A stretch of DNA of 64,000 nt, taken from assembly GCF_947242115.1 (NCBI RefSeq), contig NC_074722.1:29860340-29924339 (forward strand), written 5' to 3'. Positions within the stretch are counted from its first letter, which is position 1, and every line of letters begins with the position of its first letter. This DNA comes from Biomphalaria glabrata. Lineage: Eukaryota. The translations under genes were made by a program, and so were the position numbers. This document shows, piece by piece, positions 3,458-64,000 of the stretch. The notes under the pieces were generated by a model, which worked only from the letters and a program-made list of their open reading frames with translations, was not told the origin of the DNA and did not search any database.

Positions 3458-3948
3458 CTGCAATAAAATATTATCCTCTTAAAAAACATTTTGTCAAGAA
3501 AAAATGTGAAGATCTAAATACATTTCTAATGGTACCAGAAGACACAAAAATTCCAGTAATCTACAATTTATAGTTAGAACATTCTTGGTGTAAAGAGTGA
3601 TAAAAACACAACTGACTGCTGCAGACTTGTTAAAATTGGACTCAGGGGGAAAAGGATTATAATAGGCAAACAAGATATAAATCACCTTTTAAAAAAGATT
3701 TCCCTCGGAGCAGAGTTCCAGAGATATGAAAACCACTAAGACTAAGCTTCCATGACAATAAATAAATATAATATTAAAACAAATGTTTCTTACATATTAC
3801 AACTGAATTCAAAAGTTGTTGTCTAAAGTAGTAACATATATTGTATATGTTTATGTATCCACAGATATTTAAGAATATATATATATATATTAAATATATA
3901 TAAAAATATAATGAATTATAATGCAAATTTTAACTTAAAATAGCCTAC

Positions 3949-4621
3949 CATATTCAAAGCAGCAGTTTTTTAAAGTTCCTATGATGCCACCTCTACGTGT
4001 CAAAGAATCAGCATACTCTGTAAAAGGTAATAGCTTTTGTATTATTCTTTTTTCTTTATCCATTATTATTTTACGTATTTCTGAAACTTGAGTTAGATTT
4101 GACAAAATAAGTCCCAAATAATGGAGCGCTGCATGTTTGTTATAATTTATTTGACACAAAACAGATACTATCTTTTCAATAGTAACTTTTGAATTATCTG
4201 CAAGCACCTGCTCTGCTAAATGTTTAGCACAAGATGGTATTCTAGTGACATTGGAAACAATACTACAAGCCTCATCAGCAAATTTAAAGTCAGGTTGTAG
4301 AATTTTTTGTAGCAAGTCCATTATAAATGTGGATGTAACATCATTGTGCATAAGTTTCCAGGATATTGTATCTTCTGAAGACAGATTGATAAGTGTGAGA
4401 AAAGCGTCCTTAGCAGCATCCAGCTGAGTGTCTGTAGTTAGTGAAATTATGGCTGGGATAAATGTGTTTCCTTCTGCAATGAAGTCTCGTCCTTCTTTAG
4501 AACCCGTCATTTCCAAAAAATATCGAACAGCAATTGATTTAACGTCGGGTCGCGCGGATGGCGTCAGAAATGGAAGCATTTCTTTTTCTAGAAGTAGCTT
4601 GGTTGTCTGGTCTAGGGCCAT
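3949..4621 (-). CDS. HGH1: HGH1 (FAM203/Brp16) homologue, exon 1 (ATG at 4621; MALDQTTKLLLEKEMLPFLTPSARPDVKS…CCFEY, then 1 nt).
   Basis: Translation aligns with human HGH1 (LLPFLAPGARADLQAAAVRHVLALTG; YNARAPLHYLAPLLSNLSQ; RRGGVVGTLRNCCFE). Kozak context accATGg; donor g|GTAGGC. Confidence 0.8.
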
Positions 4622-5179
4622 GGTAGGTGATTATTTTATTAAAACAGTGTTAAATACCTCTATTAATTTTATATGGAAAAAAAATAGTAACGTGCTTTTG
4701 TTTACGTCGCCATTTTTTAATTTATCTAGAGCGTCCCTACTTTTTTATGCAGCCTCATTTTCGTATTTATATTGTATTTGACTTAAATACTTTTTTAAAT
4801 ACAATAGTATATATAAATAAATTTTTAACATAAAAAATATAGAAAAAAGATTTATCATTGCTTTTTTAATCTAGATCAAGATCTAGCTATAGTTTTACCA
4901 GTATACTGAGTATAGTTATAGTTTGGGGAAACTTGTGTCATGCCTAGCTCTTAATTTGGGAAACCACTCTAAATTACCTTTTAATAAACAGATGCATTTT
5001 TCTATACTTTAAAGTCAAAAGATTTTAATAATTTACAGATACACTTTTGTGCAGATTTACAAATCGAAGAGGTGCCAGTGTCTTAGTATGACCACCAAAA
5101 CTCCCCTACAACTCTATAAATATTTACTTCGAGTCGTTAAAAAACTTCCACCTGACGCACAGCCCTATTATAAGCACCA

Positions 5180-5700
5180 TATAAAGCAGGTTGGTTATTT
5201 CTAGATTCTAGACATAACTAGAATGATAACTCGACCCAAGAGTAACTAACTAGATTAAAAAAAAAAAGATTGTCTAGAATGTAGAATATCATATAAAATT
5301 TATAAATGAAATGAATATGTAGATAAGAGTCTAGTTACTTAGTAACTTACTACTATAGTAACTATACTAGTACTAGAATCTAGAATTAGTAGAAGATCTA
5401 CTAACTAAGACCAAGACACTAAGAATACTAACTATATTGTTACTAGTAACTATATATTATATATTACTATATAATAAATTTTTTTAAAGTATATAACTAG
5501 ATCTATATTACTATATATATATATATATTTATAACATAACTAAGTTAAAGATCTAAACTCACTCACTAAACTAATCTTCATCTATCTAGATCTAAGCAAG
5601 CCCTAGTAGAGGTCTATCTAGCGGGCTAGGGCCCGCTAGGGGAATCTAGACTTTCTAGAGTCACTAGAGAGATTAGTCTAGTATTGAGTATAACACAGCC
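5180..5700. repeat. CTAG/TAGATCTA-rich low-complexity block. It is one of many in the window (others around 21960-22230, 22790-22900, 23600-23900, 24780-24850, 25300-25460, 61020-61260, 62640-63760).
   Basis: Dense recurrence of ctaga / tagatcta / actag short palindromic motifs, visible by eye. Confidence 0.5.
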
Positions 5701-8700
5701 TTCATAACAATCATCGAATTAATTCTTATCATAATCCAATGATATAGCCTAGCTTGATAATAAAGAATAATTTATAATTATGTTTACAATTTTCTTAGAT
5801 CTATCTATACCGATATTTAGGTCATAAGATCTATTATATATTAAAAAATGGCCTGCTTCTCTACCACCAAAAGTGAAAAACAAATTGACTTTCTATATAT
5901 GTGGACGGGAAAGTCTCTCCAAATAAGGCTCCACAGCCATATGAAAAAGTGTTTGAGATAAACCATGGTCGTTCTATGACTGAAGGAGGCCAATATATTA
6001 TATATAATATATTATATATTTATATATTAGGGCCCTGATTGATTTATCACTCATCACTAATTCTATCACTTGCTGTGGACAAAAATAGGAAAATGTAACC
6101 TTTACCTCTTACCTTAATCTAGCATTTCTAGGACAACTAAGATATTTTCATGGTCGAAACCACAGCATCAGCAATAAAATGTACCAAAATCAATTTTTTA
6201 TTCGCAATATTGACTCAACATGTTGTTTCTTAAGCCAACATATGTTACAATATTGAAAAGTACAAGATTATACTTCAGCTTTTAAGCATTTTATTTTTTA
6301 TGTGTAATTTCCTTATGTAGTCAACCCCCTTTCCTTTCCCCAACTAAAACTTTTAGTAAAAGAATTTGAAAATAAAAAGTTTGGTGTGTTTCTTTCTAGG
6401 ATCTGATCTTTTTGTCATCCAAAGATTTCTATAGTAGCCCAATTGTTTTGTAACAATAAAAATAGGTTGTCATGTACTACATGAAACACAAAATTGCTTT
6501 ACATGTTTCAGATGTTCCTAAAGAGTTGAAGATAACTTACATCCTAGCCCAAACCTTCCGCAGGTTGACGGGGGTTGGCAGTGGGTAAGATATGAATTTG
6601 GGACTCTGGATGATGGAACGACAGTCCAGCATGCGTACTGCATGACCAGACAGTCATTTTGACTTATTAATATACTTGTTTGTTAAGGTCTTATTCATAC
6701 TCTTGACAGGAAGTTGTTGTTTGTTTTTTTTTAGTAAAATGACAAAATCTGACATTGGAGTGAACATTTTTGCCTACCCATATCTAATGAGTATCTGATT
6801 TTTTTTTTAAAAGTAAAAGAATTTTCATTGACAGAGCATTGTTTTGTGTTTCTTAAGAATCTTCGCATCCTGCAGTTATTGATGAATACCTGGAGTTTTT
6901 CCATGGTGGTAGTGGTTCTCCAGGTCTGGTTGGTGGCCTATGCCCCAGAAGGGACCATAGGCAGAGATGAGATGATGCATTTTTTTGGTTACATTGTACA
7001 AAAAAATATACAAATGTTTACAAAGTAAACTATTGACAATGCAAATAGTTTTATTTGCTCTTAGCCAAATCAAGCACACATGTATCTCCAATAAATCTTG
7101 CTCATTAAGTTACATATTTTTTTTAGCTTGAGTCTTTTCTGCTCACAGGCCTTCAAAAGTCATGAGGATGAAACAGATAAAGAGAGAATAGCAATGATCA
7201 TTGAAAGAGCAATAGAAGATGCTGCATGGGTTTTAGAAAAGGTAGGATAAAGTTATTAAATGTTATTATAGTATAAATTAATGCTGGAAACTTGGCACAC
7301 TACAATTTAATCTTTGTGTCTCATCCAGAGTAAGGGCCATGTATCCCTTTGTGTCAATTCCCAATTATTTCTTTTGGCTTCCTTTTTTTTTCCCTGATAC
7401 TGTACCTTCACAGAGAGCTCTTTTCAGGTTCTTAGAACCATGTGACATAGCCATACAACTTGAACATACACAAATGTTTTGCTTTTTTTTTTTTAATGGT
7501 TAACTTTTGAAAAAGAACTTGCGTTAATTATCACTGGAGTATTTTTAAAAAGCAGAACTGTGGTAGCTATTATATATATATCAAACTCTCCTATTTTTTT
7601 GTTAAATTATGAATTAAGAAAAGCAGTAAGTCTGAGAGGTACCACTTGATCACTTTTTTTCTTGTTTTGGGATAAGCACTGGTAGTGTTTTTGCTTCCCA
7701 CTGCTTTATACCAATGAATATTGTTTATACAAAAAAAAAATTGACATAGAACCAAAGCTTTACTTTGTGTAGATGCTGTCAACTTTGTCAAAATAAAAGA
7801 CTATCAGGTTTATTTGAAGCATGATTATATCTAGCAGGAACTATCTGGGGCTTATTAAAAAAAAAACATAACAATTTATTTGTAGCATTTTAATTTTTTC
7901 AAATCATTCCAACATTCTTGTATTCAAAGTTTTTAGTGGAGCTCTATACTTACTTATTTTATATACTTAATCTTTCAATATTTACTAAAGAGGCAACATC
8001 GGAAGGTCCAGGATATAGTCTATAGCTACATGTTATGCACAATGAAACTTGAGATTTCTTGAAAAACTTACTTTTTCTCCATCAAGCTAGTTTTTACTTG
8101 ACATTTACTTGTATTTATAGTATTTGTAGGTCTAGGCTCAGTTATCAAATTCATCAAATTTTTTTTATACCATTTTATTCCTTATTTTTACAATATTATT
8201 ATTATTATTGTAAATATGAGCTAATAGTCCTTTGTTGGCACCACCAGGATCAAGGCTTATTATTGATATTAAAGATATTGATATTATTACATTATTTACA
8301 GATATTATTATTATTATTATTATTATTACAGTATTTACAGAAAAAGAAGAAGTGACTGGTTCAAGTTAATCTGAGTATGCTCTGCAATAATGATAACTAC
8401 CAGCTCTACAGGCAAATACAGAATTTAAAACAGCCTAATGGAAGATGATTGGAATACCTTCAGCTCAGCATCTGTATTAACTAATGAAATACATTGTTTA
8501 CCTATAGGGCAAGCAAGATTGTTTCCAAACGCTGTTTAATCATTAGTTTCTAACAATACAGAAAACCATCTTACTATTTTTTATCAACATGATAAAATAT
8601 CAAAATGCATGATGTTTATATATCAGTTTGAGGTTTAGTTATAGTGTCTGTAATATAGCATTGTTAAGGGACTAGTATTAAAGATATGGATCATTTTATG

Positions 8701-9559
8701 ATTAGTTTTAAAGCAAACAGTTTGTGAAAATGAAGAATTGTATTACTTTAAATGTCCATAGAATTTTTATTTTTTTTTTTAACTTTTTTTTGTTTGTGAT
8801 TTGTCAATATTAATAAAATTGTCTACCACTTATTGAAAAAAAAACATCCCCAAATTTTCATCATTCTTGGTAATGGATACAAGATATGGGAACAGATCTT
8901 TCAATAATAAAGAAAATTACTTTTTAAGAAATATCTTTAAGAATATATTCTTTATAAATAGCTTGAAGATTGCATAGAATAATAATAAAAAATAATAGTC
9001 AGATTAAAAATTGTTATGTTACATAAGAATATAAATCTATGTCAGATTTTCAACTTGTACACACAAAAAATTGTATATTTTTGTACATTTTCAACTTCTT
9101 TTCAGAAATTTTGTTTATAATTAAATATTTTCATTTAAAACTATTGTTCTTTTTAATTTGTGTGTATGAAAGTAAATTTCACCTGGACCTGATCATTCAA
9201 TTAGATCATGTGCTACATTCTAGGTATATGTTGAAGCCCTTTTAAATATCCCCATCATTTAATTTCAATTCTTAACTGAAAGCAACAGAATATATACCAG
9301 ATACTAGACATTGTACATGATATTAAAACAAAAAGCCCTGATTCTGTTCGATTACTTATGGGAGATTTCAACCATTTTTCAATAGCTAAGCACTGGCTGA
9401 TATTTAGTTAATATGTTCATTGTCCTTCAAGGCAAGATAGAACTCTAGACTTGTTACAGCAACATAAAATAGGCCTTTACATATCGAACATTATTTTTCC
9501 TCGGAAAGTTACACCACACAATGTTCCATCTTAGATCCACAAAGGGATTTTAAAGACAG

Positions 9560-10770: not shown

Positions 10771-12545
10771 GGCGGACTGGGTGTCAAAATCGGCCCGGGC
10801 ATTGTATATGATATGATGGGCATTCAATAGTCTGACGGTTCCCGGACATTTCATCGCCGGCCACTTCATCCCCGGTCATTTCATCCTCTAATCCATCAAT
10901 AATAATTGTAAAAAGTATGAAATTAACAATATTTCATAGATTTGTTTTTATTTACATGACAAAAAGAATTACACATTAATAGATAATAATAGAATATAAT
11001 GTCATTAAAATATAAAAAAAAGAATTGACATTTATAGATATAGAGCTAATGTAAAAATTGTTTTTGCGTGTTAATTGAAATCAATAAGATAATTTCTATT
11101 ACTAGTAGATACAGAAGACGATTCTTTGATTCGTATATTGGTGTACATCACTTGTAATTTCTTGGCCAGTGTTGTGTATTTCTTAAGTTAGCGTTTATTA
11201 GAATAAATAAAACGTTATATCAGAGTTTGAAATTACACGCTCATATTTAAGAAAGAACGAATGACCAATAAAGTGAAAGATGGTCTTCAGGAGACAAGTT
11301 ATCAGCAGCAAGATCATAAGTATTCTAATCGTTCTCATTTCTCAAAAGATTTCCACTACTTCCACCATACCTTGGCCTTTGATCACGCAATATGCGCAGG
11401 ATAATATTAACATCCCAACAACAAACAGAAACAATATAACTAAATACAAACTAACTAAATACAAACTCCGCATTACAATATATCTACTTATTGAACTATA
11501 TTCTTTCATTTCTCAACAAGTCTGAAGAGAGAAGGGAGAACACTATAAAAACTATTAATAACAAGTCAAAAATATAAAAAGGTATTCTAAACCAACTATG
11601 TATATAGCCTATTAGATGAAATAAGGACTTAAAGGCACAGTTTTAACAGCACAATTACACAATGACTAAGAAAACAGAATTTAATTGGGGATGAAATGAC
11701 TGGGGATGAGGTGTCCGGGCATGAAGTAACCAAGGATGAAATGACCGGCCACCAGTCTGACATGTCCTCAAAATCATTATGTTAAGTTTAATAATGTATC
11801 GATAACTGTACGCATGCATAGGCCTACTGTTGCAACTCTAGGTTAGGCACTCAACGAAAGGCATGCAACTCAACACAGTTTAACAGGAAATAATAGTTGT
11901 GTTTATTCACTAGGGTAAACACATAACATGATGATTCATCCTTCAGCTTCCTCAGAGTCTTACTACTAAGTATACCAGTCCTTTGCTATTTAACCCGAAT
12001 GTGGACCAACGACAGCCTTCCCCGCTTCGCTCCAGGTCCCTACTACAACCTTCAGGCAGCACAAAAGTTGGCCTCTTAGTTTCCCAAATATTCAGACTCT
12101 TCACAATCCCTGATGCACTATTCTTCTCTCCATTCTAGTGTCTTCCTGTTTTCGTTCACTAGTGCGCTAGTGCGCACCTCAAGCACTGGTGCAAGGCAGG
12201 GTTACAACAATACAGTGAACTCTATATCATTATAAGAAACATAGGCATCATGTTGCTTTTTAATCGCTAAGTGTGTAGGCTATAAAATGATGGAGCCTAC
12301 TAATAGCACTACGGATGTAGGCTATTACATTATTTTAAAAAATGTGTTAGATTAAATTAGTATTAACCAGTAGAGTCTGTACAAATTAAAAAAAAAAACA
12401 CGACTCTTAGAGGGTTCCTTTTATAGGAGAATATAAAACCTTTAAAACTTTATTACATTCAAGCAGCCCTTTCGATGGCTTTGGCGATTCATTTTGGTAC
12501 CGGCCCACCGGGCATTTTTCCGAATGCCGGTATAGCCAGTCCGCC
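10771..12545. mobile_element. Putative non-autonomous DNA-transposon-like element, bounded by imperfect terminal inverted repeats (TCARRGGCGGACTGG…), with a second nested inverted pair (10838-10890 / 11686-11765; GGTCATTTCATCC motifs).
   Basis: Left end aggcggactgggtgtcaaaatcggcccgggcattg matches the reverse complement of 12500-12546 (…ccggcattcgg…ccagtccgcc). The interior is AT-rich and non-coding. No clear target-site duplication (TSD) was seen. Confidence 0.3.
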
Positions 12546-20247: not shown

Positions 20248-22264
20248 CTGAAAATACAAAAGAAAAAAAGTTAATTTTACCCAATAATAAAACAGTACAA
20301 TGAGAATTATTCAATTGAATGTAACCAAACAAGACTGTAAAACTCTCTGATAAGAGAATAAGCATAGATATTCATGTCTGGGGTGGGAGAGATGGGACGG
20401 AAGCTTTAGCAGGTTTGTAGAGCTCCTGTGGCATTTATTGCTTTCATTTATCAAGCACATTTTTTAAAAACCTACCATCAGTCACTAAAAAATATATTCA
20501 AGTCCAACAGTAAACAAAAAATACATTGAAGAAGTAAAACCCAAAAGGCATGCCAATGAGAGATACAGTAAAATGACAACTTTCTAGAGACGGTCACTAT
20601 CACACTGCATATTGATCATGCTAGGTTGTTGCCTATCTGAGGTGAATGAAATTGACGCCTTCTAAGATTAACAGTTTCATAAGGGGGGGTGCAATGTCTA
20701 CAGCTGGATTTATGCTGTTTAGAGTAAAATTTAAAGATTTATGTCCTGATCTGAGTTAAAAGATCTGAAAGTAATACAACATAATGTTTTCTAATAATGA
20801 TGTATTTGATTTTAAGAATTAAAAAAAAACTTACTCGAGGAGTAAATTAAAAACAAAAATTTTAAATGCTCTAATATAAAGTCAATAAGTCTATTTGTTC
20901 ATATAATATGGGAGTCAACCCTGAGAATAATCAGGAGCCGGTGAACCATAGGCAGCTTGCTACCAACAGTGCTAAACCATGGCCAAATCTGCAATGCCAC
21001 TGATCTCAAACTGTATCATTCCTTTGGACACATAAGCTGAATGGAAAAAAAATGTGTGGGGAACACTGTTCCAACTATAGCTAATAACCAGGCTTTCATC
21101 TAATTGATTATCTATGAGATGAACCAAAGTCACTGAAGGGAGATAATAGACTTATAAGCCTTTGGAAAAATCATGCATTAAACTTCGAAGTTGAGTCTCA
21201 TGATTGACATTTTCTAAGTCATTTTAGTATTCTATTATAGGACTGTCCAATGATATGTACATAGTATACAATATAACTTTTCCAAATTAGATTTTTCTTT
21301 AATTTTTTAAAAAGGTCATCAACAGGTAGGTTTTTATGTATGTGGTGTTGAAACATTATTGCTACCTGGTATAATTGCATGAAAACAGACAAAATATTTT
21401 TTTTTTCCACGGTAGGGTAGTTAATTTTTTTTTTAAATGAGTTTTTTTTTATGGTCAGCACTAATTGGCAACTTTCCATGCTGAGAACAGTTCTAAAGCT
21501 TATAAGATAAGTCTTCATCTTCAAACTTAAAAAAAAATTTCCTCTTCCGCCTGCTCAACCATCAAGCCAATGATTCTCCATTTAGAGGTTAAAGTTAGGA
21601 TTTGAAAATGCCTGCTCACCTTGTGTGCCTCTGCTAGTGAGAGTAAACATTAACACAAAAAAAAAAAAAATTTTAAATTACTTTTGTACAGTGCATGTTT
21701 CATGCTAAGCATAATCAGTGCACTATGATCCAATCTCTTGTGGACATTTGGAGGTATCTTGTTCAAGGTTTTTATGTTGTCTCGATAGGTAGCCAACTCG
21801 TTTACGCCACTTATCCAAATATTTCATATTATCTTCAAAATTTTTGAATAGCCTACATTTCAAATTGAATTTAATCTGTTAGATGACTACTTAGATCTGG
21901 GTCCTATCGTAATCACTAACTTAATGAGGTTTTCACAGTTATTTCTTTTTAATTTTAAAAGACAAGTACGAACAATTATTTAGTTTTGATCATTAGTAAA
22001 GACTTTATAATTATAAAAGATTAGAGCTACTCTAGAAGTATAATCTAGACCTTATTATTATAACTTATAGAATAGAACTGAATAGATCTAGATCTATATA
22101 TAATTATATGTATCTCTACTCTAGTCATTCCAGGTTTTTTTTTTAATAAAATGTTACACAAATAAACGTCTTCACTTTCAAAATTTTCATGATAAAACTA
22201 TTTAAAACTATATAAACTATATCTAGAATATTACTAGAATCTAAAGTCTAAAGTAAAAACTTAC

Positions 22265-22563
22265 TTCTTTGGCAAAACTTTGTGAAGCAAATCTTTGATG
22301 AGCCATCCTTGTCGATGGTATGTTACAATAGCTACAAATATTCCCTTATTGACTGCTCCTTCCAACAAATCTCTCATGCACGGTCGAACGTGAGGGACAA
22401 GCTTGTCAACACTCTCTGTCCACGTTCCCCCAGAATGAATGTCGATTAGGGTTTTGTCAAAGTCCATAGCTAGAAGCTTGATGCCTTTTTTCGTTAATGC
22501 TAGCACGAAGGAATCCAGTCTGGCTTTTACTTGTTTACTGGGCTTGCTTCCTGAACATGCCAT
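22265..22563 (-). CDS. HAD-superfamily (DxDxT) hydrolase-like protein, exon 1 (MACSGSKPSKQVKARLDSFVLALTKKGIKLLAMDFDKTLIDIHSGGTW…LLHKVLPK, then 2 nt).
   Basis: ATG at 22563 has a good Kozak context (gaagATGg). The upstream 'M' at 22596 has a weak context and may be non-ATG. HAD motif I is DFDKT; donor aa|GTAAGT. Confidence 0.55.
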
Positions 22564-24311
22564 CTTCCTTCTGCAGCGTAAACTAACACAACACATCTGG
22601 CAACATTAACACATTCGCTAGAGTCCACAATTAGCTTTTTTCAGGGGGAACAGAAGAATGTAAACAAATTTTACCCCCTTGGATTGGTCTTTTGACACAG
22701 CTAGCCAGGAACACAGGAACACACATTACATGAATTTCGAGAGTTGTCGCTCGTTGTTGAGATAACACTTTACAGGTCAAGGGGAGTGGCTGCGTACAAA
22801 TCTAGAATCTACATCCAAGATCTAGAATTTTTCCCTAATTACAACTAGATTCTAGATCTAGAATTAAGTCATCTTTTGCATGTAAATCTAATAGATATAG
22901 TTAGAAATAAATGTGGGTTAATGCTTATTTAAAAATCGTAGATCTCTATAATTTATTTCTATAATAATAACTGACATAGAAGAGAGCACCTGGCTGCAGA
23001 CAGCTTCGGAAAAACAGCTATCACTTTCAAAGGCCGAGGGATACACATATATAGAGAAAAAGAAAATACACTGCCGGGGACAAACTCGTAGACGGCGAAA
23101 AGAGAACCTAAATCGACGATGGTTATATTATGTCTGCGCTGAATGTGACAAAATATGTTGATCGCAGCTGTGGCAGCGTAGACTCGTGAAATACTGCCTT
23201 CCTCATTAATCTTCGGACGTGAAGATTCGACAAGCTTATATTATTATTATTATTTTTGGGTTAAGTATTCCAAAAAAAGTGTTTATCATATAAATAAATA
23301 ATATAGATTTTCTGGTACCAGCCAAGTACATGTATACTATTTTGAAATCTGCGCTGAGTGTGGCAAAATATGTAGATCGCAGCTGGGGCTGCGTATAGCC
23401 ACATGAATATATATATAGTAATGCACTCCTCATTATTCTTCGTACTTGAAGATTCGACAAGCCTTATATATATTATTATTATTATTGGTTTAAGTAATCC
23501 ACACAAGTATATTTAATTACCATATAAATAAATATGTTCTGGTACCAGCCAGGTATAATATTTTTGAAATCAATTAAGAGACAAAAGAGAGAGAGAGAGA
23601 GGCTGAAAGTATATATAGGTCTATATATGTGCTAATGATTTATAGGCCTAGTCTGATATTTTATTAAGTATCAAATTTAGAGTTATTAATTATAATAACT
23701 AGATCTATATATTTTTACAATTGGCCCTTATACATATAAATATTTAGTTAAAACTCTAGCATTTTTTGCCATAAAATAATATCGATGGTATAATTGCAAA
23801 TTCAAATTATAAAGGTGTAGGCTATAGACTTAGCCCATATAGATCTATATAGCCTACTAGACCTATATAGGTCTATGGTATGGGCCTACCATTTATTTTA
23901 GGACTCGAATTGTCTTAATGGAAACTTTATTGCGACGATATCGCTCTATAAATTGTATTTAAGGAGGTATCGCCTTTAAAAATAACAATATTAAAGTATT
24001 TTAAATGGTATTCTTGTCTTACAATACCTCTATTCAATTTCTAATTTCATGGAAACAAAATGGAAACTTATATATATGGGTGGGTACTTCGACTCGATTA
24101 TCGAAAACGGCTCTAACAACTTTCCTAGAAATTTGACAGTTATTGTTTATATAAATATATCGTTAGGAAAAGAATCAAATACTAGCAAGAATTGGCCACG
24201 ATTTCCGCATATAGTCATCGTATAGATATTATTCATCGGTTTTGAAAGGATTCGACTATTATCGATTCGAGCGCGTCCTTTTAGGACTTATTCGCGTTCG
24301 GGAATTTCCGA

Positions 24312-24342
<31 letters not shown>

Positions 24343-26082
24343 ATATTGGTGAAAGAGTTTTTTTTTTAAATTAATCAAGAAAACATTGAGAGCATCGTCT
24401 TCCAATGTCTTGATCTAATGGCCTATATATCACTGGAATATTATAAAATGTAGTAGATCTACATCTATATTATACGTTACATTCGCTTAACCAGTAAAAC
24501 TAAACTACTCTTCTTCATCATAGTGGAAAAATGGAGAGGGGATAAAAATATTCCATCACCATAATAAATATGTTTTTTTGTTTTGTTTTTTTAATCAAAC
24601 ATTCATTAATTCAATAATACGGCTCTGTATACCTATGTTATTATTTTAAGTATATGTATGTTGACATTGTTTTGTTTTTTTCAAAAGTAGGCATATTTTA
24701 AATGCTTTTCAGACTTTTCTTGTTTTAAAAAAATTAGTTTAAAAATATTTTTCTTGTTAACAGAGTAGCCTAAATGGTCATCTAGTGTAGACAACGTAGA
24801 CAGATCTAGTCTATAATAGATCTAGATTCTAGATATATCTAATACTAGACATTGAACCTTCTTTAGAGAATGGAATGGGTTGCCTGAATCAGTCCTAAAA
24901 ACAAACGGCTTGGCAGAGTTTAAGTCATTGATTAACATGAATGATTAGATTGACAAATGAAATGCGTAGATCTTTCTTCTTTTTTGAAGTAACGTCTATA
25001 ATATATGAGATTTGTCTTTCGGCCAGAGAGGAACTCTCTCTATTTCGGAAATTTCCATTTTTAAAATTAGACTTTAGAGCTCCTCAATGATCGGTTCTTT
25101 TGATATAAAACACAAGGTTAAGCGTATTCTACTTTTAGAAACTTAGGTATTGTAAAGAAGTAAGTTACTAAAAATAGAACCTGCTCTTTCAAGACTTCTT
25201 CAGCTCTGTCACGGAAAACACGTCCTGGTAAAATTATAACACTAACCGAATTGTGATTATTCTGTCATAGTCAGAGTATATAGTTTTGACAAAAGATTAG
25301 ATTGATTAGAATTAGATCTAACGACATATCTAGATTTTGAATCCACTTGGTTAACCAAGCAACGTTTGTAACAAATCATTTCTATTTTATTTTTAAGCTA
25401 GACTCTATAGTAGTCTATAGTACTATAGCTATAGTCTATAGGCATATAAATAATTATTATATTATTAGTTATATAGTCAATATAGTTGATATTCATATTG
25501 GCAATGCAATTATCAATGAATATTTGATTGATAAATTATGGAATCCTTATCAACTTTAATTTTAACCTTATTTCACTGTGTTGCAACATTTTATTTTTTT
25601 ATGTGGTTAACCACATTGATTTAAAGTCATTTAGATCTAATTCAGATAAACTTGTCTTAGCATGACCATGTCGGCATGTCACCAGACCATGCAATATAAT
25701 TGGCTGCTTGGCTTAAGATCTAATCTAGACTTGTATATATAATGTCTTGATTGATATTAGGTCTTATACATTAGCAATTGTGTTAGTAATCATGCTACTG
25801 TAATGTTAGAAGTTAGAATAACTTCATTATAAGCCTAAATCACACATCATAGATTTACTTAGGCTTAGGGTGAAGAGTGGTAAACATGGCATTTTGAAGC
25901 GATGTTGAAATGCTGCATTGTTCACCATTTATCAAATTTGAGCAGACAAAAAGCACATTTTTCAAAAGTCAAATGGCACTGAAATCGTTGTTTTTTTGAC
26001 ATACATTATTCTTATCGATACTCTCTAGATCTCAACTTTTATTAGGAAGTATTGAACTCTTGACTCTGAGCTCTGTTTAATA
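22564..26082. promoter_or_regulatory. Intergenic region between the divergently oriented HAD-like gene (-) and MVP (+). It presumably carries both promoters and contains a ~225-bp tandem duplication.
   Basis: Position between two start codons on opposite strands. No specific promoter motif was verified. Confidence 0.3.
23121..23571. repeat. Two-copy tandem duplication (~225 bp unit, ~85% identical: …ctgcgctgaRtgtgRcaaaatatgtWgatcgcagctg…gaagattcgacaagcYtata…ggtaccagcc…ttttgaaatc).
   Basis: Copy A is 23121-23349 and copy B is 23350-23571, aligned by eye. Confidence 0.6.
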
Positions 26083-26299: not shown

Positions 26300-26490
26300 T
26301 TCTCAAAAGGTCTCCAATTTAATGCTGCCTGGTCGTGCAGTTTGTGCGCTGGACTGTCGTTCAGACTTATCGATGTCCTGGTTTCAAACCCTGCCCGCTC
26401 CCATCCCCCGTCATCCTGTGGGAGGTTTGGACTAGGAAGTAAATTATCTTCAGTTCTAAAGGAACATCCGAAACATGGAAAACATAATGC
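26300..26490 (+). mobile_element. tRNA-derived SINE, family A (copy 1), in MVP intron 1.
   Basis: ~85% identical to 48140-48335 (…gctgcctggtYgtgcRRtttgcgcgctggactgtcgtt…ggttcaaatcctgcccgctcc…gggaggtttggactaggaagtaaa…ggaacatccRaaacatg). Carries a Pol III box B GGTTCAAATCC. Confidence 0.6.
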
Positions 26491-33589: not shown

Positions 33590-33935
33590 AACAATTAGTA
33601 TATATTATAATAGTTTGTCCATCGTGGTTCAATGACCACTTTTGTCATCCAGGAGGCTGAGGGCTTTGCACTGGGGTTTTGTGCCGCCTCATGTGGCTGG
33701 TGAGACCTATGTGAGCCTGTAATGTTTGGCTGCACACTGGGCAGTTTAGTCCTGCTGGAGCTAGTGTCATTTGCCTTGCTTTTCTTCTCTGGCACTTTCC
33801 TTCTGCCAGCGCTGTTCTCTTTTCCTCACTAACCTGTGCGCCAGTTTTCACAGCGTGACTCCATGATGCTCTGTCATGTGCCTCTGTCTCCCAGGTGGCT
33901 GGGTCTATGCTGAACGCCTTCAGTAACAATTAGTA
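33590..33935 (-). mobile_element. CR1/L2-like LINE 3' end (ORF2 C-terminus with zinc finger, plus tail) in MVP intron 8.
   Basis: - strand translation …IDPATWETEAHDRASWSHAV… and …CPVCSQTLQAHIGLTSHMRRHKTP…SWMTKVVIEPRW*. A second copy on the + strand at 55081-55240 shares CPVCSQTFWAHTGLTSFMKRHKTPVQPQPPWMTKVFIIEPR*. Confidence 0.6.
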
Positions 33936-49339: not shown

Positions 49340-49560
49340 AAACGTGATTATGTCCCTTATGTTTTGATCTGATTATAATACATGGGGAATGTGATGTTGC
49401 TTATGTTTTGATCTGATTATAATACATGGGGAATGTGATGTTGCTTATGTTTTGATCTGATTATAATACATGAGAAATGTGATTTGGCTTATGTTTTGAT
49501 CTATAATACATGGGGAATAAAATGTGGCTTATGTTTTGATCTGATTATAATACATGCTAT
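49340..49560. repeat. Minisatellite of ~4.5 copies of a ~49-bp unit (cttatgttttgatctgattataatacatggggaatgtgatgttg).
   Basis: Read directly in the sequence. Confidence 0.85.
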
Positions 49561-53562: not shown

Positions 53563-54010
53563 CTGTAGAGAATATGAACCACATGTTTGTGAATGTCAGT
53601 TCAAGGTAAAACTCAAAACCAAATTAACAATTAATTAGGGCTAATTTAATTTATAGCTAGAGCAAAGGTCTCTGTCACAAAAGCATAGAATAGCTTCATT
53701 TTTAGAAGATACAGTGTTTAATATAGGTTACAGCAATATCCATTTTCTTTGAACTAAAACATAATATCTTTTAAATGATATGAAAATATCACAAGCAAAT
53801 TTGGCAAGACCAAGTGGCCTAGTTTTAAACCTTAACAATAATATTTTTTAACTAGAATAACTTCATTCACTCTTGTATTTTGGAGTAATGTCTAGTACAG
53901 CTAAAATTAGCTCTTAAATTCTATGGTGTCACAAGTCTAGGCCTTTCCTATACTAGTAAGAGCAAAAGAAAACAGCTTTGCAAGAAGAAAAGCACAACAG
54001 AAGAAAGTCA

Positions 54011-55080: not shown

Positions 55081-55240
55081 GAAACTAGTTCCAGCTGGAA
55101 TAACCTGCCCAGTGTGCAGCCAAACATTCTGGGCTCACACAGGACTCACCAGCTTCATGAAGAGGCACAAAACCCCAGTGCAACCTCAGCCCCCCTGGAT
55201 GACAAAAGTGTTCATCATCGAACCACGATAGATGAACTAT
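55081..55240 (+). mobile_element. CR1/L2-like LINE 3' end (zinc-finger tail: CPVCSQTFWAHTGLTSFMKRHKTPVQPQPPWMTKVFIIEPR*).
   Basis: Translation in the + frame; same family as the copy at 33590-33935. Confidence 0.55.
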
Positions 55241-56402: not shown

Positions 56403-56490
56403 CTGGAGACAGATGTACAAAGCCTTCACTTGCCAGTGTATCAGGCTCAAAATAGTTCGAACTAATTGCAAAGGAGAGTCTTGACATGGG
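56403..56490 (-). CDS. MED24: MED24 exon 4 (SPCQDSPLQLVRTILSLIHWQVKALYICLQ).
   Basis: Acceptor caagtttaAG and donor CAG|GTAGGA. Matches human SCHGKAEECIGLCRALLSALHWLLRCT. Confidence 0.7.
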
Positions 56491-56556
56491 CTTAAACTTG
56501 AAATAAAAGAACAATTTAGAACAAACTTTATTTTAAAACAAAAGTTTGGTTAATAT

Positions 56557-56652
56557 CAGACCTGCCTACCAAAAAAAGTCCAATTGCGTAACGCTGATGG
56601 TCAAAATGCGTATTTTGGCACCAGAATGCGTAACGCGATCCATTATTTTGTC

Positions 56653-56683
<31 letters not shown>

Positions 56684-57533
56684 AATCTACTCTAGACTCT
56701 AGATCTGGGCTTAAGAGTGTTACTGATGCCGTGGATCCGCTACAAACGTAGATCTAGGTCTACTCTTCATCCTTGATCTATTCTATACTAAGACTAAGAA
56801 TCTAGTCTAGATCTAGACTAGATGGTAGTAGATGTTATCGATCTAGATCTAGTCAATCTAAATCATACTACAACTAAATTGGATCTAGATTGTAGAGTAA
56901 TGTAAGAGAATCATGACATAACGTAATGACTAGCTAGACTCTAGCTAGGGTCTACATTCTACATCTAGACTAGATAAAATTGCTAGATCTATTTATGTAT
57001 AACATTAATAACAAGTTATCTAGATTCTAGATCTAGAATCCAGATCTAGATTAGATATCTACAATGTCACTCAATGTGTTTTGAATCGATAGCACTTCGA
57101 TATTTTTTCTATACAAATGAATACGGGAATCAGGGATTCAACATAATTAATTTCTACTAATGAACTTACAAAAAAAAAAAAAGTCACGTTGGTATATCAG
57201 CTAACTGACGGTACCAACCTGGTACCAACCCGCCACTCCCTCACACTCACGTTCTTCATTTCTAGACTAAATCTAATTGCTTTTAAGAACCAATCAACGT
57301 ATAGATCTGGACACAATGTGTTCCCCCACCTTTTCTGTCCCCCCCCCCCCGCCAACAGGACGGCTTAGCCTTAGCGTGACCTCCGTGACCGCTCGTAAGC
57401 TAGTCAAGAGAGGGGAAAAAAAGGATACGAAATGCGTAACGCGACGGGTTAAATGCGTATTTGCGTACTGACGGTCATTTTTGGGAGATTTTGCGTAACG
57501 AATCCGCATTTTGCGTAACGGTAGGCAGGTCTG
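56557..57533. mobile_element. 977-bp MITE-like non-autonomous DNA transposon in MED24 intron 3. It has terminal inverted repeats (TIRs) CAGACCTGCCTACC…/…GGTAGGCAGGTCTG, multiple subterminal GCGTAACG repeats, 6-bp TAATAT flanking target-site duplications (TSDs), and a TAGATCTA-rich interior.
   Basis: TIRs at 56557-56570 and 57520-57533; TAATAT at 56551-56556 and 57534-57539; GCGTAACG at ~56589, 56627, 57431, 57483, 57495 and 57513. Confidence 0.65.
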
Positions 57534-57689
57534 TAATATTAAAAACTCAACACAGCCTAAAATCTCAAGATATAATATTTCACATATTTGAACACTCATT
57601 GGTATTAAATATTAAATAAATATTTGGTGTAACCAATGACACAAGTTCAAAAAAGTATTTGCATATAAAATTTCCATGAAGTTTTCAAT

Positions 57690-57802
57690 TTAAAAATACC
57701 TTATCTTTGAACCAAACATTTCTGCCAGATGTAGAAGCGCCAAGATACAATAAGGTCTTGAGAAATCATCAAACTCTGTGATATACTTTAAAACTGTATG
57801 GT
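57690..57802 (-). CDS. MED24: MED24 exon 3 (MIPYHTVLKYITEFDDFSRPYCILALLHLAEMFGSKI, then 2 nt).
   Basis: Acceptor tgtcctcAG and donor ag|GTATTT. Matches human MVSYSSVLTAISKFDDFSRDLCVQALLDIMDMFCDRL. Confidence 0.8.
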
Positions 57803-59040
57803 ATGGAATCATCTGAGGACAAGTACAAAATTAAAATACAAACTTACAGCCATTTAATGGAACTCTTTTATTAATTTTTTAAGCCACTAGGGCAGTGATG
57901 GGCAAACTACGGGCCGCGGGCCAAATCCGGCCAACTGAGAAGTCTGATCCAGCCCACACATGTTTTGTTTTCACAATGAAAAATACAGGTTTTTAATACG
58001 AGTTAAAACATTGATATTATTTAAAAGAAAAATTTCTTTTACTGAAGAGTTATCCTCCATTTTTTCTTTGTTAAATTTCTAAATTTTTATATAATGGCCC
58101 GCCAAAACTTACTGGCAAAGGGTATCTCTAAGACCTCTGTTAACAACTTGTGGCAACAATATAGGTCTTATGTTATTTTCATTAGTAAAAAGAAAACTTA
58201 AAATTTCTTTAACAACTATTTAGCAAGGCAAATATTACTGATATTTTGAAGAGTAAATGATATTAGCAATTTATTTATGAACTATTATTTTTACATAAAG
58301 TATAGTGTTACATTTTATAACAATCTTTCAGGACATTTAAAAGGTTTTAGCAATATCAAGAGAAAAAAAATAAATAAATTTGACCAAAAGAAGAATAGAA
58401 AACAGTGAGATATTTTCAAAATAAATGAGTTTTTTGACAATTATACTTCCACAACATAATTTAAAATTACTGATATTGACTATAATTTAGTATGCTAATG
58501 AAATGGTTAAGGCCCAATTTGTTAATGTTGTGATATTTAAGCTTTAAATACGTACTAAAAAATATGTGCCATTTAAATATGAATTTCAATAAAAGTTAAT
58601 ACAATCTAAAAAATTAATTGTCAACTAAGTTTAGTTATTATTAGCGGCCCCCGAAATGGGAAAAGACGCTATTAGATTTGTGTGAAATGTCTGTTCGTCT
58701 GTCCCGTTTAGATCTCGTAAATTAGAAATGATAGTGAAAATCCGACATCACAATAAATCTAGACCATTCAAAGTTCTGATGCAACGGCTACTTTTTTTTT
58801 CTCTGAAAGCGAAAAATCTAATTTTTTAAATCACTTATGCAAGCAGTTTTTTAAAGAGAAAAAGCTATTTAGTATGCATTATAAGTTAGACCTAATTTAA
58901 AACGAATAGTAATCTTGTAAACTGCATTTTCTAGAACATTCTTTTTAATTTGTGGAAATTTTTTTTTGTTTTTTTTTTAGGATTCAAATAAGAGATTGAG
59001 CCTTTTCAAAATAATTACATCAATTATAACACTTCAGTTA

Positions 59041-60324: not shown

Positions 60325-63300
60325 TTTAATTTTGCTGACTAAAACTGCTCTGGTATTGGAAGCATTTTGACTGCTGGAGCCAGGCTCTTTTTTGATATCC
60401 AGCAATCCACTTTAAGCAAAACACACACACACACAAAAAAGATAAATGATGTTCATTCTGTCATTATTAAATTTAGAGTAGAAGATCTAACGGTCAATAT
60501 GTACCAGTTGTAAGATAATTTCATTATTAAATTTAATGCTCTTTATTAATAAATTTAAAAATTCCCTAGTAAAGTTTTAATTACTAAATATCTATCAATA
60601 AAAAAAATGCTGTTCACATTCACATACTCTTCATATTTTATAGATAACATTTTATTTATATAAACAAACCCTTTTCATCAATGCTCTAGTTGGGTACAAG
60701 TATTATTAGTGGTAGCTGTTTGGACAACACAATAATTTTTAAAAAGATATTAATATGCTCATATCTATCTCATATATTTTTCATTTCTTTAAATCTAAAG
60801 CGTAGTCCAAACATCTGCCATAATCTCAGCATAATATGATTGAACAATCAAATTAATTAATGCAAAACCAAAGAATGCTTTCTTACCTAGAGATGCCAGA
60901 TCCTGTGGGCTCTTTTTTTATCTGAATAGACATTTTTCACTACATCAATAAGGAAGTTAAAACAATCAACAATTTCTTTAAATCTGAAATATCAAAGAGA
61001 TGCACAAAGTTGACTAAGAGTCTAGTAAGAGTTATAATAATAATAATACTTAAACTAGATCTAGTACTAGAATCTAGACTACTATTCTCAGTATTCTTTA
61101 TTAGAGTAGACTCTAGCCCTAGTCAATCTAGATAATATATCAGAATTGACTAGAATAGATTCTACTTAGAATGATTTGATCTATATTACTACTAGTTTAA
61201 CTAGGTCTAAAGTATATTTAAAGTACTTAGAGGCTATTGTCAGTATTGTATTATAATTTATTATATATATATTTTATTTTTTTTATAATGTAATTTCCCT
61301 TCCGAACAAGTTAAGCACTGCTGTCGCAATCTTTGCGTTTCAATTTTTATAGCTCCGTAATGGTTAGTCCTAGGAAAAAACTACAAACATCTATAAACTT
61401 GTCATCCATTTGTCAATAAAAATAGCTATATTGTTTTGTTACGCTAGGCATAGTTACAGTAAAATATGATGTTGAAGAGGGTCAGGTTAATGTGGTCCAG
61501 CGCTAACATTAACGAACACCATTCCCTGCTCTGTACACTAACGAACAATGTCTGTACACTAACGAACACCTCTTAGTTATTGCATTTAAAAATAATATTA
61601 TCTTCAATTTTATTTATTTTATTTTCAATTTCTTTTTAAAAAGCTCTAGACCGACAGATTAGTGTCCCTTTTCCCTCTTTTAATTGTTCCCTTCTCTGCT
61701 AAACCCTCAACTTTACGAAGGGCCATATACTGTGACCTACCTAGATCTTGTTGACCCAACAAAAAAAAAACAAAAAAACTGGGTGACCCCAGGCGTCTAG
61801 CCTGCTCACTCCACACAGTGAATGTGACCCAATTAGGTACCTGCTTGATCAATAATTATCCCTCCCTCTACTTTTTTTTTCTCTGGTACTATGTTGATGA
61901 TGCCATGCTAGGTATATAATAAGAGCGACAAGGAGTGAAAAAAAGAGAGAGAGAGAGAGAGAGCAGGAGTGTGCCACTCATGAAAACATTTTTTTCATTA
62001 TTCACATTATACCCAACTCTACCCCTCATCAGCACTATTTTTAGCAATATTCCCTTTCTTTTTACTCATTTATATCCCACTTGTTTTAACATCTAAAACA
62101 AAAGCAAAATTAAGTAAGAAAATGTTAGACCTATACAAAATAAATCAAAGAAATCTCCATTTCCCAGCCTTGAGTTACATCCCTCTGATATGCATTTTCA
62201 ACATTAAAATAGGGTTTGTTAGTGTCATTGATAGTGATAAAGACAGTTCATTAGTATCATTGATTGTGACCAACGAAAATCATGAAACACCCCATATTTA
62301 GAGATAGACTATGACATGTGTGTGTTTTTAGGCCAATTTAGAAGCATTTTAGACAGTTTATGTTTAGCTGATACTTAAATTTTCTAAAAAAATCTCCTTC
62401 ACCCTGGACCTACCCTCCTTCTGTCCTACCAGTGCTCTTTGAACCCATGTAAAACTCTTGTTTTTCAGAGTATACTTAACTAAATGTGTCTGAACTGTAA
62501 AAAAATGGAGTATAAATAAAAAACAATATACTAGTTTCATCATAATCATAGCTGTCAACATAGAGGCTCATTTTAATAAAGATTGTGGGGTGTTCGTTAA
62601 TCATAATGTCAGAAAATAGGGGGTGTTCGGAAGAGGAAAATTACTCTAGGATCTATATTAGGTACTTTGATAAAAAAATCAAATTATTTGAATCTAAATG
62701 AAACCAGTATAGTTAGTTAGATCTTTTTGAATGGAGTTATAAGTTATATAGTTAATAATATAGAGTAGAGTAATAGACAGTATACTATAGTTACTTATAG
62801 TACTCTATACTCAACTATAGTCTATAGTCTATAATTAGATCTATATACCATATTTAATTATACTGAATAAATAAGCTATACTTAGACTTAATTAAGCAAA
62901 TTAAGCCCTTAGGCCGTACTCTCAATAGTCTCAAACTCTGGCGTCTCTGGCCTTATCTATCTCAGTTACAGTATGATTGATGAGTATCTGTATCTTTAAA
63001 AAAAATCCTCACTTATACTTATAGATCTAAATCTATATTAATTATAATATATATATTCTAGAGATGTAGTAGAATCGGTAAAATCTAGGCATAGATCTAC
63101 TTAGTCATCTAGACCTAGACTTAGTCTGTTAGATCTGGATCTAGAATCTATTATATCTAGAAATCTAGATGGATCTATTTACACAATACCGCATCCCTCA
63201 GAAAAGCGATTCACATTTTTATGTTTACATGTTTACATATTTACAAATTGTATCTAGATCCAGGATTTAGTAAATAAGTTACGAAACAAATATTATATAG

Positions 63301-64000
63301 ACCTGGAAGTCAAAGGTCGAGATCCGTAACTTTAGCTATAGACGAGTAGACTCAGTAGAGTGTATAATTACTAACACAAGTGACAAGATATTGCTAGATC
63401 TACTAATTTAGTAGCTAGGATCTAGATCTAGTGTTTTAGACTGTATACATCTAATCTAGTTTTGAATTTTTTTTTTCAGCGAAGGAAGCAAATGATGTTA
63501 TTTTTATTCAGTCTATTAATTCAAGCCCACAACTATATTATAATAATAATTTATTATTATAGACATCTATAGCTTACATTGCTTTTAATAATTTACAGTA
63601 AATTACAATTACAGTACTACCGTTATATCTACTAGATCTAGATCTAGTACTAATACTACTACTATCTATACTAACTGTAACGACACTAACTCTAATTATA
63701 TTAATTATAACAACTTGAAGATTATAGATCTAGAATTATCATAATATAATATAAGAACAATATCATAACAATAAAAGAACTCACAAACAACACTTATTCT
63801 TTCAAAATTGAAAAGAATATATATTACATTAGCCCAAAAATCCTGCAGGATCCACCACACAATTTAACCAGGCAGCCATCCATGATCAGGAAGAATACAT
63901 TAAAGAGACCAATTTATTTTCAGCTGTGGGTCATGCTGATACCATGATTAATCAAATCAATGAACTTCAACAGTTACAATAATTATAATATGTTATAATA

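Follow-up and report, generated by a model that had tools for sequence, protein, structure and literature searches.

A probable hAT-type non-autonomous DNA transposon with a 6-bp target-site duplication in intron 3 of MED24 in Biomphalaria glabrata

Is the non-coding 977-bp segment at positions 56557-57533 of this Biomphalaria glabrata window (the whole 64-kb stretch of DNA that was analysed) a mobile element, what kind of element would it be, and are the CTAG-rich blocks found elsewhere in the window its relatives? The original prediction described a MITE with terminal inverted repeats, subterminal repeats and a 6-bp target-site duplication. The transposon architecture is supported, and the claimed MITE corresponds to a non-autonomous element. 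Its parts are as follows:

56551..56556, no strand: target-site duplication, left copy TAATAT, identical to 57534-57539
56557..56570, + strand: left terminal inverted repeat CAGACCTGCCTACC, 100% complementary to 57520-57533
56571..56652, + strand: left subterminal region, in which TGCGTA is present three times (56585, 56607 and 56627)
56653..56677, no strand: (TA)12.5 microsatellite within the element, period 2, 12.5 copies, 100% matches
56686..57060, no strand: CTAG/TAGATCTA-rich palindromic core, with five TAGATCTA and short ATCTAG runs only
57063..57425, no strand: unique interior, richer in GC (0.42), containing runs of A13 and C12 and two copies of GGTACCAACC
57426..57519, + strand: right subterminal region, with five TGCGTA motifs at 57433, 57454, 57462, 57492 and 57512
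57520..57533, - strand: right terminal inverted repeat GGTAGGCAGGTCTG, the exact reverse complement of the left arm
57534..57539, no strand: target-site duplication, right copy TAATAT, read from the sequence

The 14-bp terminal inverted repeats are present where they had been predicted and are perfect, with termini reading CAG...CTG. No further match to CAGACCTGCCTACC was found in the window beyond the two arms, even when up to 3 mismatches were allowed. The arms are GC-rich (9/14 bases) compared to the 32% GC of the surrounding DNA. The predicted TAATAT duplication is also present, exact and real-looking; when the flanks were compared at lengths of 2 to 10 bp, they were identical at 6 bp only. 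Alternative boundaries were tried and rejected. An 8-bp hAT duplication and a TTAA site (piggyBac/Kolobok) both clash with the flanks as read, and a TA..TA (IS3EU) boundary requires shifting the ends to TA, which abolishes the inverted repeat together with the duplication.

The reiterated subterminal octamers were confirmed and are confined to the ends. GCGTAACG occurs five times in the window (56586, 56628, 57434, 57493 and 57513) compared to 0.03 expected, and all five copies lie in the subterminal regions of the element. The TGCGTA core has 13 copies in the window, eight of them inside the element, where all are on the + strand and fall within the two subterminal ~100 bp (56585-56635 and 57433-57520). 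The left motifs are TGCGTAACG, TGCGTATTT and TGCGTAACG in order, spaced by 22 and 20 bp. Left and right ends carry TGCGTA on the same strand, and the last right-end copy adjoins the inverted repeat.

Perfect inverted repeats of 12-14 bp within 3 kb are frequent in this window, which contains 141 of at least 12 bp and 18 of at least 14 bp. This frequency, and the single known copy of the element, favour a reading in which an inverted repeat arose by chance in AT-rich, low-complexity intron DNA and no mobile element is present. However, only one of the 141 inverted repeats of at least 12 bp is flanked by a direct repeat of at least 4 bp, and that one is this element. In 150 windows simulated with a first-order Markov model, the mean count per window was 0.08 for an inverted repeat of at least 12 bp with a duplication of at least 5 bp, and an inverted repeat of at least 14 bp with a duplication of at least 6 bp was never obtained (0/150). 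The GC-rich arms, the exact 6-bp flanking repeat and the excess of GCGTAACG also argue against chance. So does the CpG content: the observed/expected ratio is 1.04 in the element compared to 0.37 in the window and 0.25-0.36 in the 1-kb flanks, giving a CpG-undecayed island with edges that match the inverted-repeat arms. A chance origin is thus extremely improbable, and the anatomy of the element goes beyond a chance arrangement.

The element is located in intron 3 of MED24, where it makes up 983 of the 1203 nt. MED24 exons were mapped using Elysia MED24, and the splice sites were read off the sequence. The two flanking exons are:

56403..56496, - strand: MED24 exon 4, encoding SLSPCQDSPLQLVRTILSLIHWQVKALYICLQ, with 81% identity to Elysia P0072 residues 147-178
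57700..57812, - strand: MED24 exon 3, encoding ...MIPYHTVLKYITEFDDFSRPYCILALLHLAEMFGSKI, from tblastn with Elysia MED24 P0072 and Pfam Med24_N

The 5' splice site of exon 3 is the GT at 57699/57698 on the - strand, 166 nt from the right end of the element, and the acceptor of exon 4 is the AG at 56498/56497, 60 nt from the left end. In Elysia chlorotica the orthologous intron measures ~530 bp, and in a contig of another gastropod 600 bp; no similarity to the element was found in either. The insertion hit a pre-existing MED24 intron, as its location and its absence from the two other gastropods indicate. The landing site would have been an intron 3 of formerly ~220 nt, at a point with the donor 166 nt and the acceptor 60 nt away, and the element is presumably spliced out together with that intron.

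Transposons of the hAT superfamily generate 8-bp duplications in general. In classic hAT ends (hobo, Hermes, Ac, Tol2) the termini read CAG...CTG, the inverted repeats span 10-25 bp, and binding motifs are reiterated in the subterminal DNA. The hAT terminus signature is 5'-YARNG, the subterminal motifs are transposase binding sites within ~100-250 bp of each end, and an autonomous hAT encodes a BED zinc finger, a DDE/RNase-H fold that carries an insertion domain and, at the C-terminus, a hAT dimerisation domain. The hAT-type features present here are the reiterated subterminal motifs (putative binding sites) and the 6-bp duplication (as in hAT6; one copy); the 14-bp inverted repeat falls within the hAT size range, with a terminus that departs from the signature at its fifth base. 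The element resembles hAT6 in its CAG...CTG termini, in the short length of its inverted repeats and in having subterminal repeats; it differs in having C rather than G as its fifth terminal base and in being known without a transposase. It also shares the duplication length and the animal lineage with hAT6, which has 6-bp duplications and groups with animal hAT lineages (PMC12730594, citing Kapitonov & Jurka 2007 in Repbase Reports). The original prediction called a 6-bp duplication unusual; such duplications are indeed uncommon but are documented for hAT6, IS3EU/GingerRoot, Polinton and Dada (PMC12730594, PMC10045372, PMC3706591). We suggest that the element, seen in one copy, is probably a class II (cut-and-paste) DNA transposon of a non-autonomous, MITE-like type, and that it most likely belongs to the hAT6 group of the hAT superfamily. 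Judged from its ends and a single duplication, its superfamily would be hAT, and its mobilisation would occur in trans.

Two features of the ends stand against the hAT call. The terminus CAGAC matches Y-A-R-N but has C at position 5 instead of the G of YARNG, and all eight TGCGTA motifs have the same orientation at both ends, with none inverted. The CGT-A-ACG core is nearly palindromic, which weakens the objection from orientation.

The basis of the hAT call in the ends and one duplication, and the deviation of CAGAC from YARNG, leave some room for a different or unclassified superfamily with 6-bp duplications. Examples would be atypical elements (MULE/IS256-like, P-like or of KDZ type) and an orphan family of MITEs without a surviving partner; we consider this possible, if unlikely. 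P elements have 7-8-bp duplications and start with CATG, which counts against a P-like element, MULE inverted repeats are usually long, and CAG...CTG with short inverted repeats and subterminal repeats fits hAT better. MuDR/IS256 duplications range from 4 to 10 bp (PMC10045372), and unclassified repeats constitute 17.6% of the B. glabrata genome (PMC5440852), both of which favour another superfamily. Kyakuja has CA..TG termini and 7-bp duplications but is without any inverted repeats (PMC12730594).

An IS3EU/GingerRoot-type non-autonomous element, the best-known maker of 6-bp duplications, would account for the duplication length, and the B. glabrata annotation includes 177 IS3EU fragments (PMC5440852 Supplementary Data 41). 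However, the IS3EU/GingerRoot ends are TA..TA (rarely TG..CA) with longer inverted repeats (PMC10045372, PMC12730594), and in the fungal families the inverted repeats exceed 30 bp and the ends are TAYGG..CCRTA (PMC12730594). Here the termini are CAG..CTG with a 14-bp inverted repeat, and the shift to TA destroys both repeats. Membership of this group is very unlikely. Dada elements also make 6-7-bp duplications, and 414 Dada fragments are annotated in B. glabrata; in contrast to the element, with its perfect inverted repeat, Dada lacks terminal inverted repeats and targets multicopy tRNA/snRNA genes (PMC3706591). No small-RNA genes were detected in the window (0 Rfam and 0 tRNA matches). Polinton/Maverick elements are 15-20 kb long, with long inverted repeats and polymerase/integrase genes. 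They share the 6-bp duplication (PMC10045372), whereas the element is 977 bp and non-coding.

Within the hAT superfamily, a similar organisation is seen in internally deleted, non-autonomous derivatives of Ac/Ds, Hermes and hobo, Ds-type elements among them. These keep the ends required for transposition (inverted repeat plus ~100 bp of motifs) around a non-coding interior that is partly unrelated filler, and mobilisation would again be in trans. They differ in having 8-bp duplications and motifs in both orientations, compared to the eight TGCGTA on one strand here. SPIN elements, also hAT, have 8-bp duplications and CAGTGGTTCTCAACC-type termini. A SPIN-like hAT family of ~1,000 copies is documented in B. 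glabrata (PMC5440852); it shares with the element the host, probably the superfamily, and non-autonomous copies, but has no sequence relationship to it.

The element has no coding capacity. It contains no ORF longer than 101 aa and no Pfam family, the ORFs of the interior (57063..57425) have no Pfam domain or homologue, and the concatenated stop-free frames of the element gave no match at E<=10 against 5.8 billion proteins. The longest ORF in the window, at 228 aa, is an exon of HGH1, and none is transposase-sized. With inverted repeats and a duplication around non-coding DNA the element resembles a MITE, but its 977 bp are at or above the usual limit (~800 bp); MITEs typically also occur as many homogeneous copies per genome. 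The core at 56686-57060, where CTAG is denser than in any other bin of the window, contains the majority of the 20 TCTAGA/AGATCT hexamers of the element and, as single-stranded DNA, has a fold stabler than that of shuffled sequence (z = -3.95). The original prediction of a CTAGA array in this core is right as to its CTAG richness but not as to regularity: Tandem Repeats Finder gives runs of 2-6 units only, and the core is a cluster of short palindromes.

CTAG-rich blocks exist elsewhere in the window, as predicted. TAGATCTA occurs 27 times compared to 2.5 expected, and dense CTAG blocks are found at 5101-5800, 22701-23000, 24651-24950, 53801-54000, 60901-61300 and 62951-63550, with further TAGATCTA copies in 21960-22230, 23600-23900 and 25300-25460. 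The original prediction suggested a large family of related elements, or AGATCT arrays seeded by this element. On such a model, family members would carry or seed CTAG/AGATCT arrays, and the other blocks would be degraded relatives. The strong over-representation of TAGATCTA favours this model, as does the core itself, which shares its TAGATCTA-type composition and (TA)n adjacency with the host blocks. However, none of the other blocks carries the termini (at up to 3 mismatches) or GCGTAACG, no homology of at least 60 bp was found by self-BLAST between blocks or between a block and the element, and an inverted repeat with a duplication delimits none of the blocks. Instead, the blocks follow gene 5' ends and not the boundaries of transposons: 22 TAGATCTA copies lie outside the element, and 21 of these fall in three gene-5' zones. 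Similar TAGATCTA clusters are located at gene 5' ends in single loci of Elysia and Aplysia that lack the element. The family model is therefore highly improbable. A further point against it is that a second B. glabrata assembly has the 5.1-5.8 kb block at an unchanged position, with differences that are mainly small indels. Between the two B. glabrata haplotypes, indels are enriched ~3-fold in this single CTAG block, which is not significant.

In a handful of loci, then, TAGATCTA clusters concentrate around gene 5' ends in B. glabrata. A further proposal is that these clusters are a lineage-specific gene-5' feature of B. glabrata and some other heterobranchs (Elysia, Aplysia) and that the transposon carries a portable copy, which we regard as doubtful; the evidence, from a handful of loci, backs the half of the proposal that concerns 5' ends. 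TAGATCTA might serve as a palindromic motif, free of CpG, of promoters or insulators, and the form of TAGATCTA-type palindromes can be compared with that of the DRE motif of Drosophila, TATCGATA. The carried cluster may be the promoter of the parent element or captured host promoter DNA. A literature search on the TAGATCTA motif returned nothing relevant.

Searches for other copies of the element were negative. BLAST within the 64-kb window returned no second copy, only (TA)n matches and CTAG-run matches of 20-30 bp, and no copy was found in 22.5 kb of the second B. glabrata assembly (GCA_025434165.1). Scans for the termini in metagenome, prokaryote and viral contigs, where snail DNA is not expected, gave 0 matches. 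Exact look-ups of three ORFs (a 101-aa ORF across the right end, the MED24 exon-3 ORF and the exon-5 ORF) returned no record, and a name search for MED24 among annotated proteins returned only a fragment from another species. Literature searches with the inverted-repeat string and its substrings returned nothing relevant.

The insertion looks young and fairly recent, because the CpG of the element is undecayed relative to the depleted window and flanks, and because neither the inverted repeats nor the duplication contains a mismatch. By part, the CpG observed/expected ratio is 1.32 in the left 96 bp, 2.31 in the right subterminal region, 0.45 in the core (56686..57060) and 0.90 in the interior (57063..57425). 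The high CpG could alternatively reflect a local absence of methylation rather than youth. We also considered the CpG depletion of the CTAG core as a sign of host origin; it says nothing on this point, since sequence of the CTAG type is inherently poor in CpG. According to the B. glabrata genome study, DNA transposons are old and did not invade recently, and no intact transposase was found (PMC5440852), which is in some tension with the young-looking copy described here.

The following mechanism is proposed from the sequence features. A transposase encoded elsewhere in the B. glabrata genome would recognise the 14-bp CAG...CTG inverted repeats and the TGCGTA(ACG) subterminal motifs, phased at ~21 bp. 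The element would be excised and re-inserted via cuts staggered by 6 bp, and repair of these cuts would produce the TAATAT duplication. The interior would not be a transposase remnant; the (TA)n and the TAGATCTA-rich core would be carried along inside the element, and may derive from the parent element's own promoter-like region or from host-type filler captured when the deletion derivative formed.

The element itself is of an ordinary kind and adds another non-autonomous DNA transposon to a genome of which repeats make up ~45%; greater interest attaches to the clustering of TAGATCTA at gene 5' ends. Should an active transposase of hAT type that matches the element still exist, it would be an endogenous candidate tool for transgenesis of a vector of schistosomiasis, and would give rise to insertion polymorphisms among snail strains. 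If the clustering of TAGATCTA at 5' ends holds genome-wide, it would represent a new regulatory or structural feature of heterobranch promoters, and if the transposon does carry a portable copy of such a cluster, the family could carry promoter-type modules into introns.

The 977-bp element at 56557-57533 begins with CAGACCTGCCTACC (56557-56570) and ends with its exact reverse complement (57520-57533), and no third match to this terminal inverted repeat was detected in the window at up to three mismatches. TAATAT was found on both sides (56551-56556 and 57534-57539), and comparison of the flanks over lengths of 2-10 bp revealed agreement at 6 bp only. Five copies of the subterminal motif GCGTAACG are present in the window compared to 0.03 expected, all of them within ~100 bp of the element ends. 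Eight of the 13 copies of TGCGTA in the window are in the element (three at the left end, five at the right), mostly spaced by 20-22 bp and all on the plus strand; since CGT-A-ACG, the core of the motif, is almost a palindrome, this shared orientation may matter less than appears. Longer direct modules common to both ends are AATGCGTAACGCGA, AAATGCGTATTT and CTGAYGGTCA. All that the original prediction had described is present in the sequence. From left to right, the element consists of:

Left inverted repeat, then ~80 bp of subterminal repeats
(TA)12.5, to the right of the left subterminal repeats
375-bp core rich in short CTAG palindromes, with five copies of the palindromic 8-mer TAGATCTA
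363-bp unique segment, GC-richer, between the CTAG core and the right subterminal repeats
~95 bp of subterminal repeats, then the right inverted repeat

Since the core contains only short ATCTAG runs, it forms a cluster and not a regular array; its fold as single-stranded DNA is more stable than that of shuffled sequence (z = -3.95). The element is non-autonomous: its longest ORF is 101 aa, no Pfam families were detected in its ORFs, and its concatenated open frames had no homologues among 5.8 billion proteins. The longest ORF of the window is 228 aa, so no intact autonomous partner lies within it. No second copy was found in the 64-kb window or in L004 (22.5 kb), a locus from the second B. 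glabrata assembly, and no match was returned by protein-proxy and exact-ORF searches or by searches for the termini patterns in metagenome, prokaryotic-genome and viral collections, none of which is a snail genome.

Of the 141 perfect inverted repeats of at least 12 bp within 3 kb in the window, only that of the element is flanked by a direct repeat of at least 4 bp. When the window was simulated 150 times with a first-order Markov model, no inverted repeat of at least 14 bp with a duplication of at least 6 bp was obtained, and the relaxed combination (at least 12 bp and at least 5 bp) arose 0.08 times per simulated window. Together with the motif clustering, these counts and simulations mean that chance is not a serious explanation, and the element is very probably a cut-and-paste transposon insertion.

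The classic hAT end design, as in hobo, Hermes, Ac and Tol2, comprises CAG...CTG termini, a short inverted repeat and phased subterminal motifs. The element is similar in its CAG...CTG termini, its inverted repeat of 14 bp and its phased subterminal motifs but departs from the hAT YARNG signature at position 5, which is C rather than G. Duplications of hAT elements are normally 8 bp, with two groups placed among the animal hAT lineages, hAT5 and hAT6, having 5 bp and 6 bp, respectively (PMC12730594). IS3EU/GingerRoot elements also have 6-bp duplications, but their termini are always TA..TA (rarely TG..CA) and their inverted repeats are longer (PMC10045372, PMC12730594), whereas the element has CAG...CTG ends and an inverted repeat of only 14 bp. 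Dada elements have 6-7-bp duplications, lack inverted repeats and target small-RNA genes (PMC3706591); the element has inverted repeats, and no small-RNA gene was found in the window, which had no Rfam or tRNA matches. CACTA, Mirage, Chapaev and Transib have CA..TG ends and duplications of 2-5 bp, in contrast to the 6 bp observed here. We regard the element as an ordinary further instance of a hAT6-like non-autonomous transposon, its placement in hAT specifically being slightly favoured.

A second transposon-like element of ~917 bp lies at 10837-11753 (region 10829-11761). It has imperfect 19-bp inverted repeats (GGTTCCCGGACATTTCATC / GGTGGCCGGTCATTTCATC, 16 of 19 positions matching), 3-4 tandem 15-bp subrepeats (CCCGGACATTTCATC) at each end and an exact 8-bp direct repeat, AGTCTGAC, on its flanks.

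The window, from the nuclear genome of the freshwater snail B. glabrata, is AT-rich (GC 0.32) and CpG-depleted (o/e 0.37). It and L004 come from different assemblies (the latter from GCA_025434165.1), and their alignment over the first 9 kb shows identities of 97.4% and 92.5%. The ORF at 3935-4621 (minus) matches NCBI "protein HGH1 [Biomphalaria glabrata]" at 100% identity. The MED24 query, the Elysia chlorotica protein P0072, shows 70% identity, contains Pfam Med24_N and has a cluster-mate named Mediator subunit 24. The genes recognised are:

ATG at 4621, minus strand, HGH1
ATG at 5088, plus strand, LYR-motif gene
ATG at 22596, minus strand, HAD-like gene
ATG at 26083, plus strand, major vault protein (MVP)
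60396 down to ~40170, minus strand, MED24, from co-linear tblastn matches to P0072
57700, minus strand, end of MED24 exon 3, with GT donor at 57699/57698
56496-56403, minus strand, MED24 exon 4, with acceptor AG at 56498/56497

The MED24 introns also contain a 509-bp tandem unit (45252-46651, ~2.7 copies, 99.2-99.4% identity), a GC-rich region (0.41-0.42) whose right edge carries a 39-bp inverted repeat (45717 or 46226 pairing with 46684), and a 44-bp minisatellite (49356-49556, 4.7 copies, 88% matches). Three copies of a ~160-bp interspersed repeat, probably a SINE or MITE family, are present at 6491-6658, 26321-26485 and 48173-48338 (76-86% identity), with another at L004 2587-2754. The translation of an inverted pair of ~160-bp copies (33610-33768 and 55081-55240, 83% identity) resembles the conserved C-terminal tail of ORF2 from a non-LTR retrotransposon, and further LINE-like tail fragments occur in the six-frame translations of the window.

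The MED24 intron hosting the element is 1203 nt long. The element and one copy of the duplication account for 983 nt, leaving an intron of ~220 nt before insertion. With 166 nt separating the element from the donor and 60 nt separating it from the acceptor, its ends fall outside the zone where branch points usually lie. Orthologous introns of ~530 bp in Elysia chlorotica (L005) and 600 bp in a gastropod Logan contig (L006) do not resemble the element. The CpG o/e of the element is 1.04, compared to 0.25-0.36 in the 1-kb flanks and 0.37 in the window; it reaches 1.32 and 2.31 in the terminal ~100-bp ends and 0.90 in the unique segment. The value of 0.45 in the CTAG core is uninformative on age because CTAG-type sequence is CpG-poor by construction. 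The undecayed CpG, perfect inverted repeats and perfect duplication suggest that the element inserted recently, in a gene body whose CpG is decaying. The B. glabrata genome is said to have no recent DNA-transposon activity (PMC5440852), and the young look of the element in such a genome gives it modest interest.

The CTAG-rich blocks of the window are genuine, with 27 copies of TAGATCTA compared to 2.5 expected and AGATCTAG 14.5-fold above expectation. The other CTAG-rich blocks of the window had been proposed to be relatives of the element. They contain neither its termini nor GCGTAACG, no homology of at least 60 bp was detected from block to block or from block to element, and no block has an inverted repeat plus duplication at its boundaries. 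The reading as a transposon with a 6-bp duplication stands, and the link to the other blocks is not upheld. The core of the element has (TA)n adjoining TAGATCTA clusters, as do the blocks in host 5' regions. Lying more than 120 bp inside either end, it was carried in by transposition and is not target DNA; it fits a promoter-proximal part of the parent transposon and also host-type filler captured when an internally deleted derivative arose.

The block at 5.1-5.8 kb occupies the same place in the second assembly, where most of its differences are small indels and few are substitutions; indels are ~3-fold more frequent than in neighbouring DNA in this one block, which is not significant. Inside it, L004 carries a 5.3-kb insertion (3881-9212) that is absent from the window (~5337-5376), so that strains or haplotypes differ structurally here. 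This insertion is flanked by a ~40-bp duplication (CTAGTACTAGTATAGTTACTATAGTAGTAAGTTACTAAGT) and codes for a Gag-like protein of 691 aa that contains two CCHC zinc knuckles and weakly matches the SCAN domain (24 bits, below the Pfam cutoff of 27).

Outside the element, 21 of the 22 copies of TAGATCTA fall in three zones, leaving a single copy in ~50 kb of intronic and 3' intergenic sequence. These zones, and the clusters at other loci, are:

Window 5498-5796, LYR gene first intron, adjoining the HGH1/LYR divergent promoter, three copies
Window 22083-25632 (22.1-25.6 kb), HAD-like/MVP divergent region, nine copies
Window 61056-63725, 3.3 kb upstream of MED24 exon 1, nine copies
L004 17004-18983, surroundings of the Med19 5' end, ten copies
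L005 1775-2349, MED24 start codon in Elysia chlorotica, all seven copies of the 22-kb locus within ~350 bp
L007 9743-9762, Aplysia HGH1, 240-260 bp upstream

The Aplysia locus was a test made after the 5'-end idea had formed. In the window, 49% of TCTAGA/AGATCT outside the element lies in the 15.7% of sequence that extends from 1.5 kb upstream to 1 kb downstream of start codons. Across seven loci, 11 of 18 TAGATCTA clusters are within 1 kb of a start codon compared to 2.97 expected (P about 3e-5), the hypothesis being post hoc, the loci few and start codons a stand-in for transcription start sites. The clusters are patchy, and the loci from Bulinus, Lymnaea, Candidula and Mya have essentially none. 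A ~20-bp tandem satellite of CTTAGTCAGTCATCTAG type, ~700 bp long, in Bulinus truncatus (L001 1850-2570) scores as CTAG-dense but has no relation to the TAGATCTA clusters. We found no published work on TAGATCTA clusters at gene 5' ends. The association with gene 5' ends is a lead rather than a result; it is of more interest than the element itself, and the TAGATCTA clusters may be a lineage-specific promoter-proximal motif.
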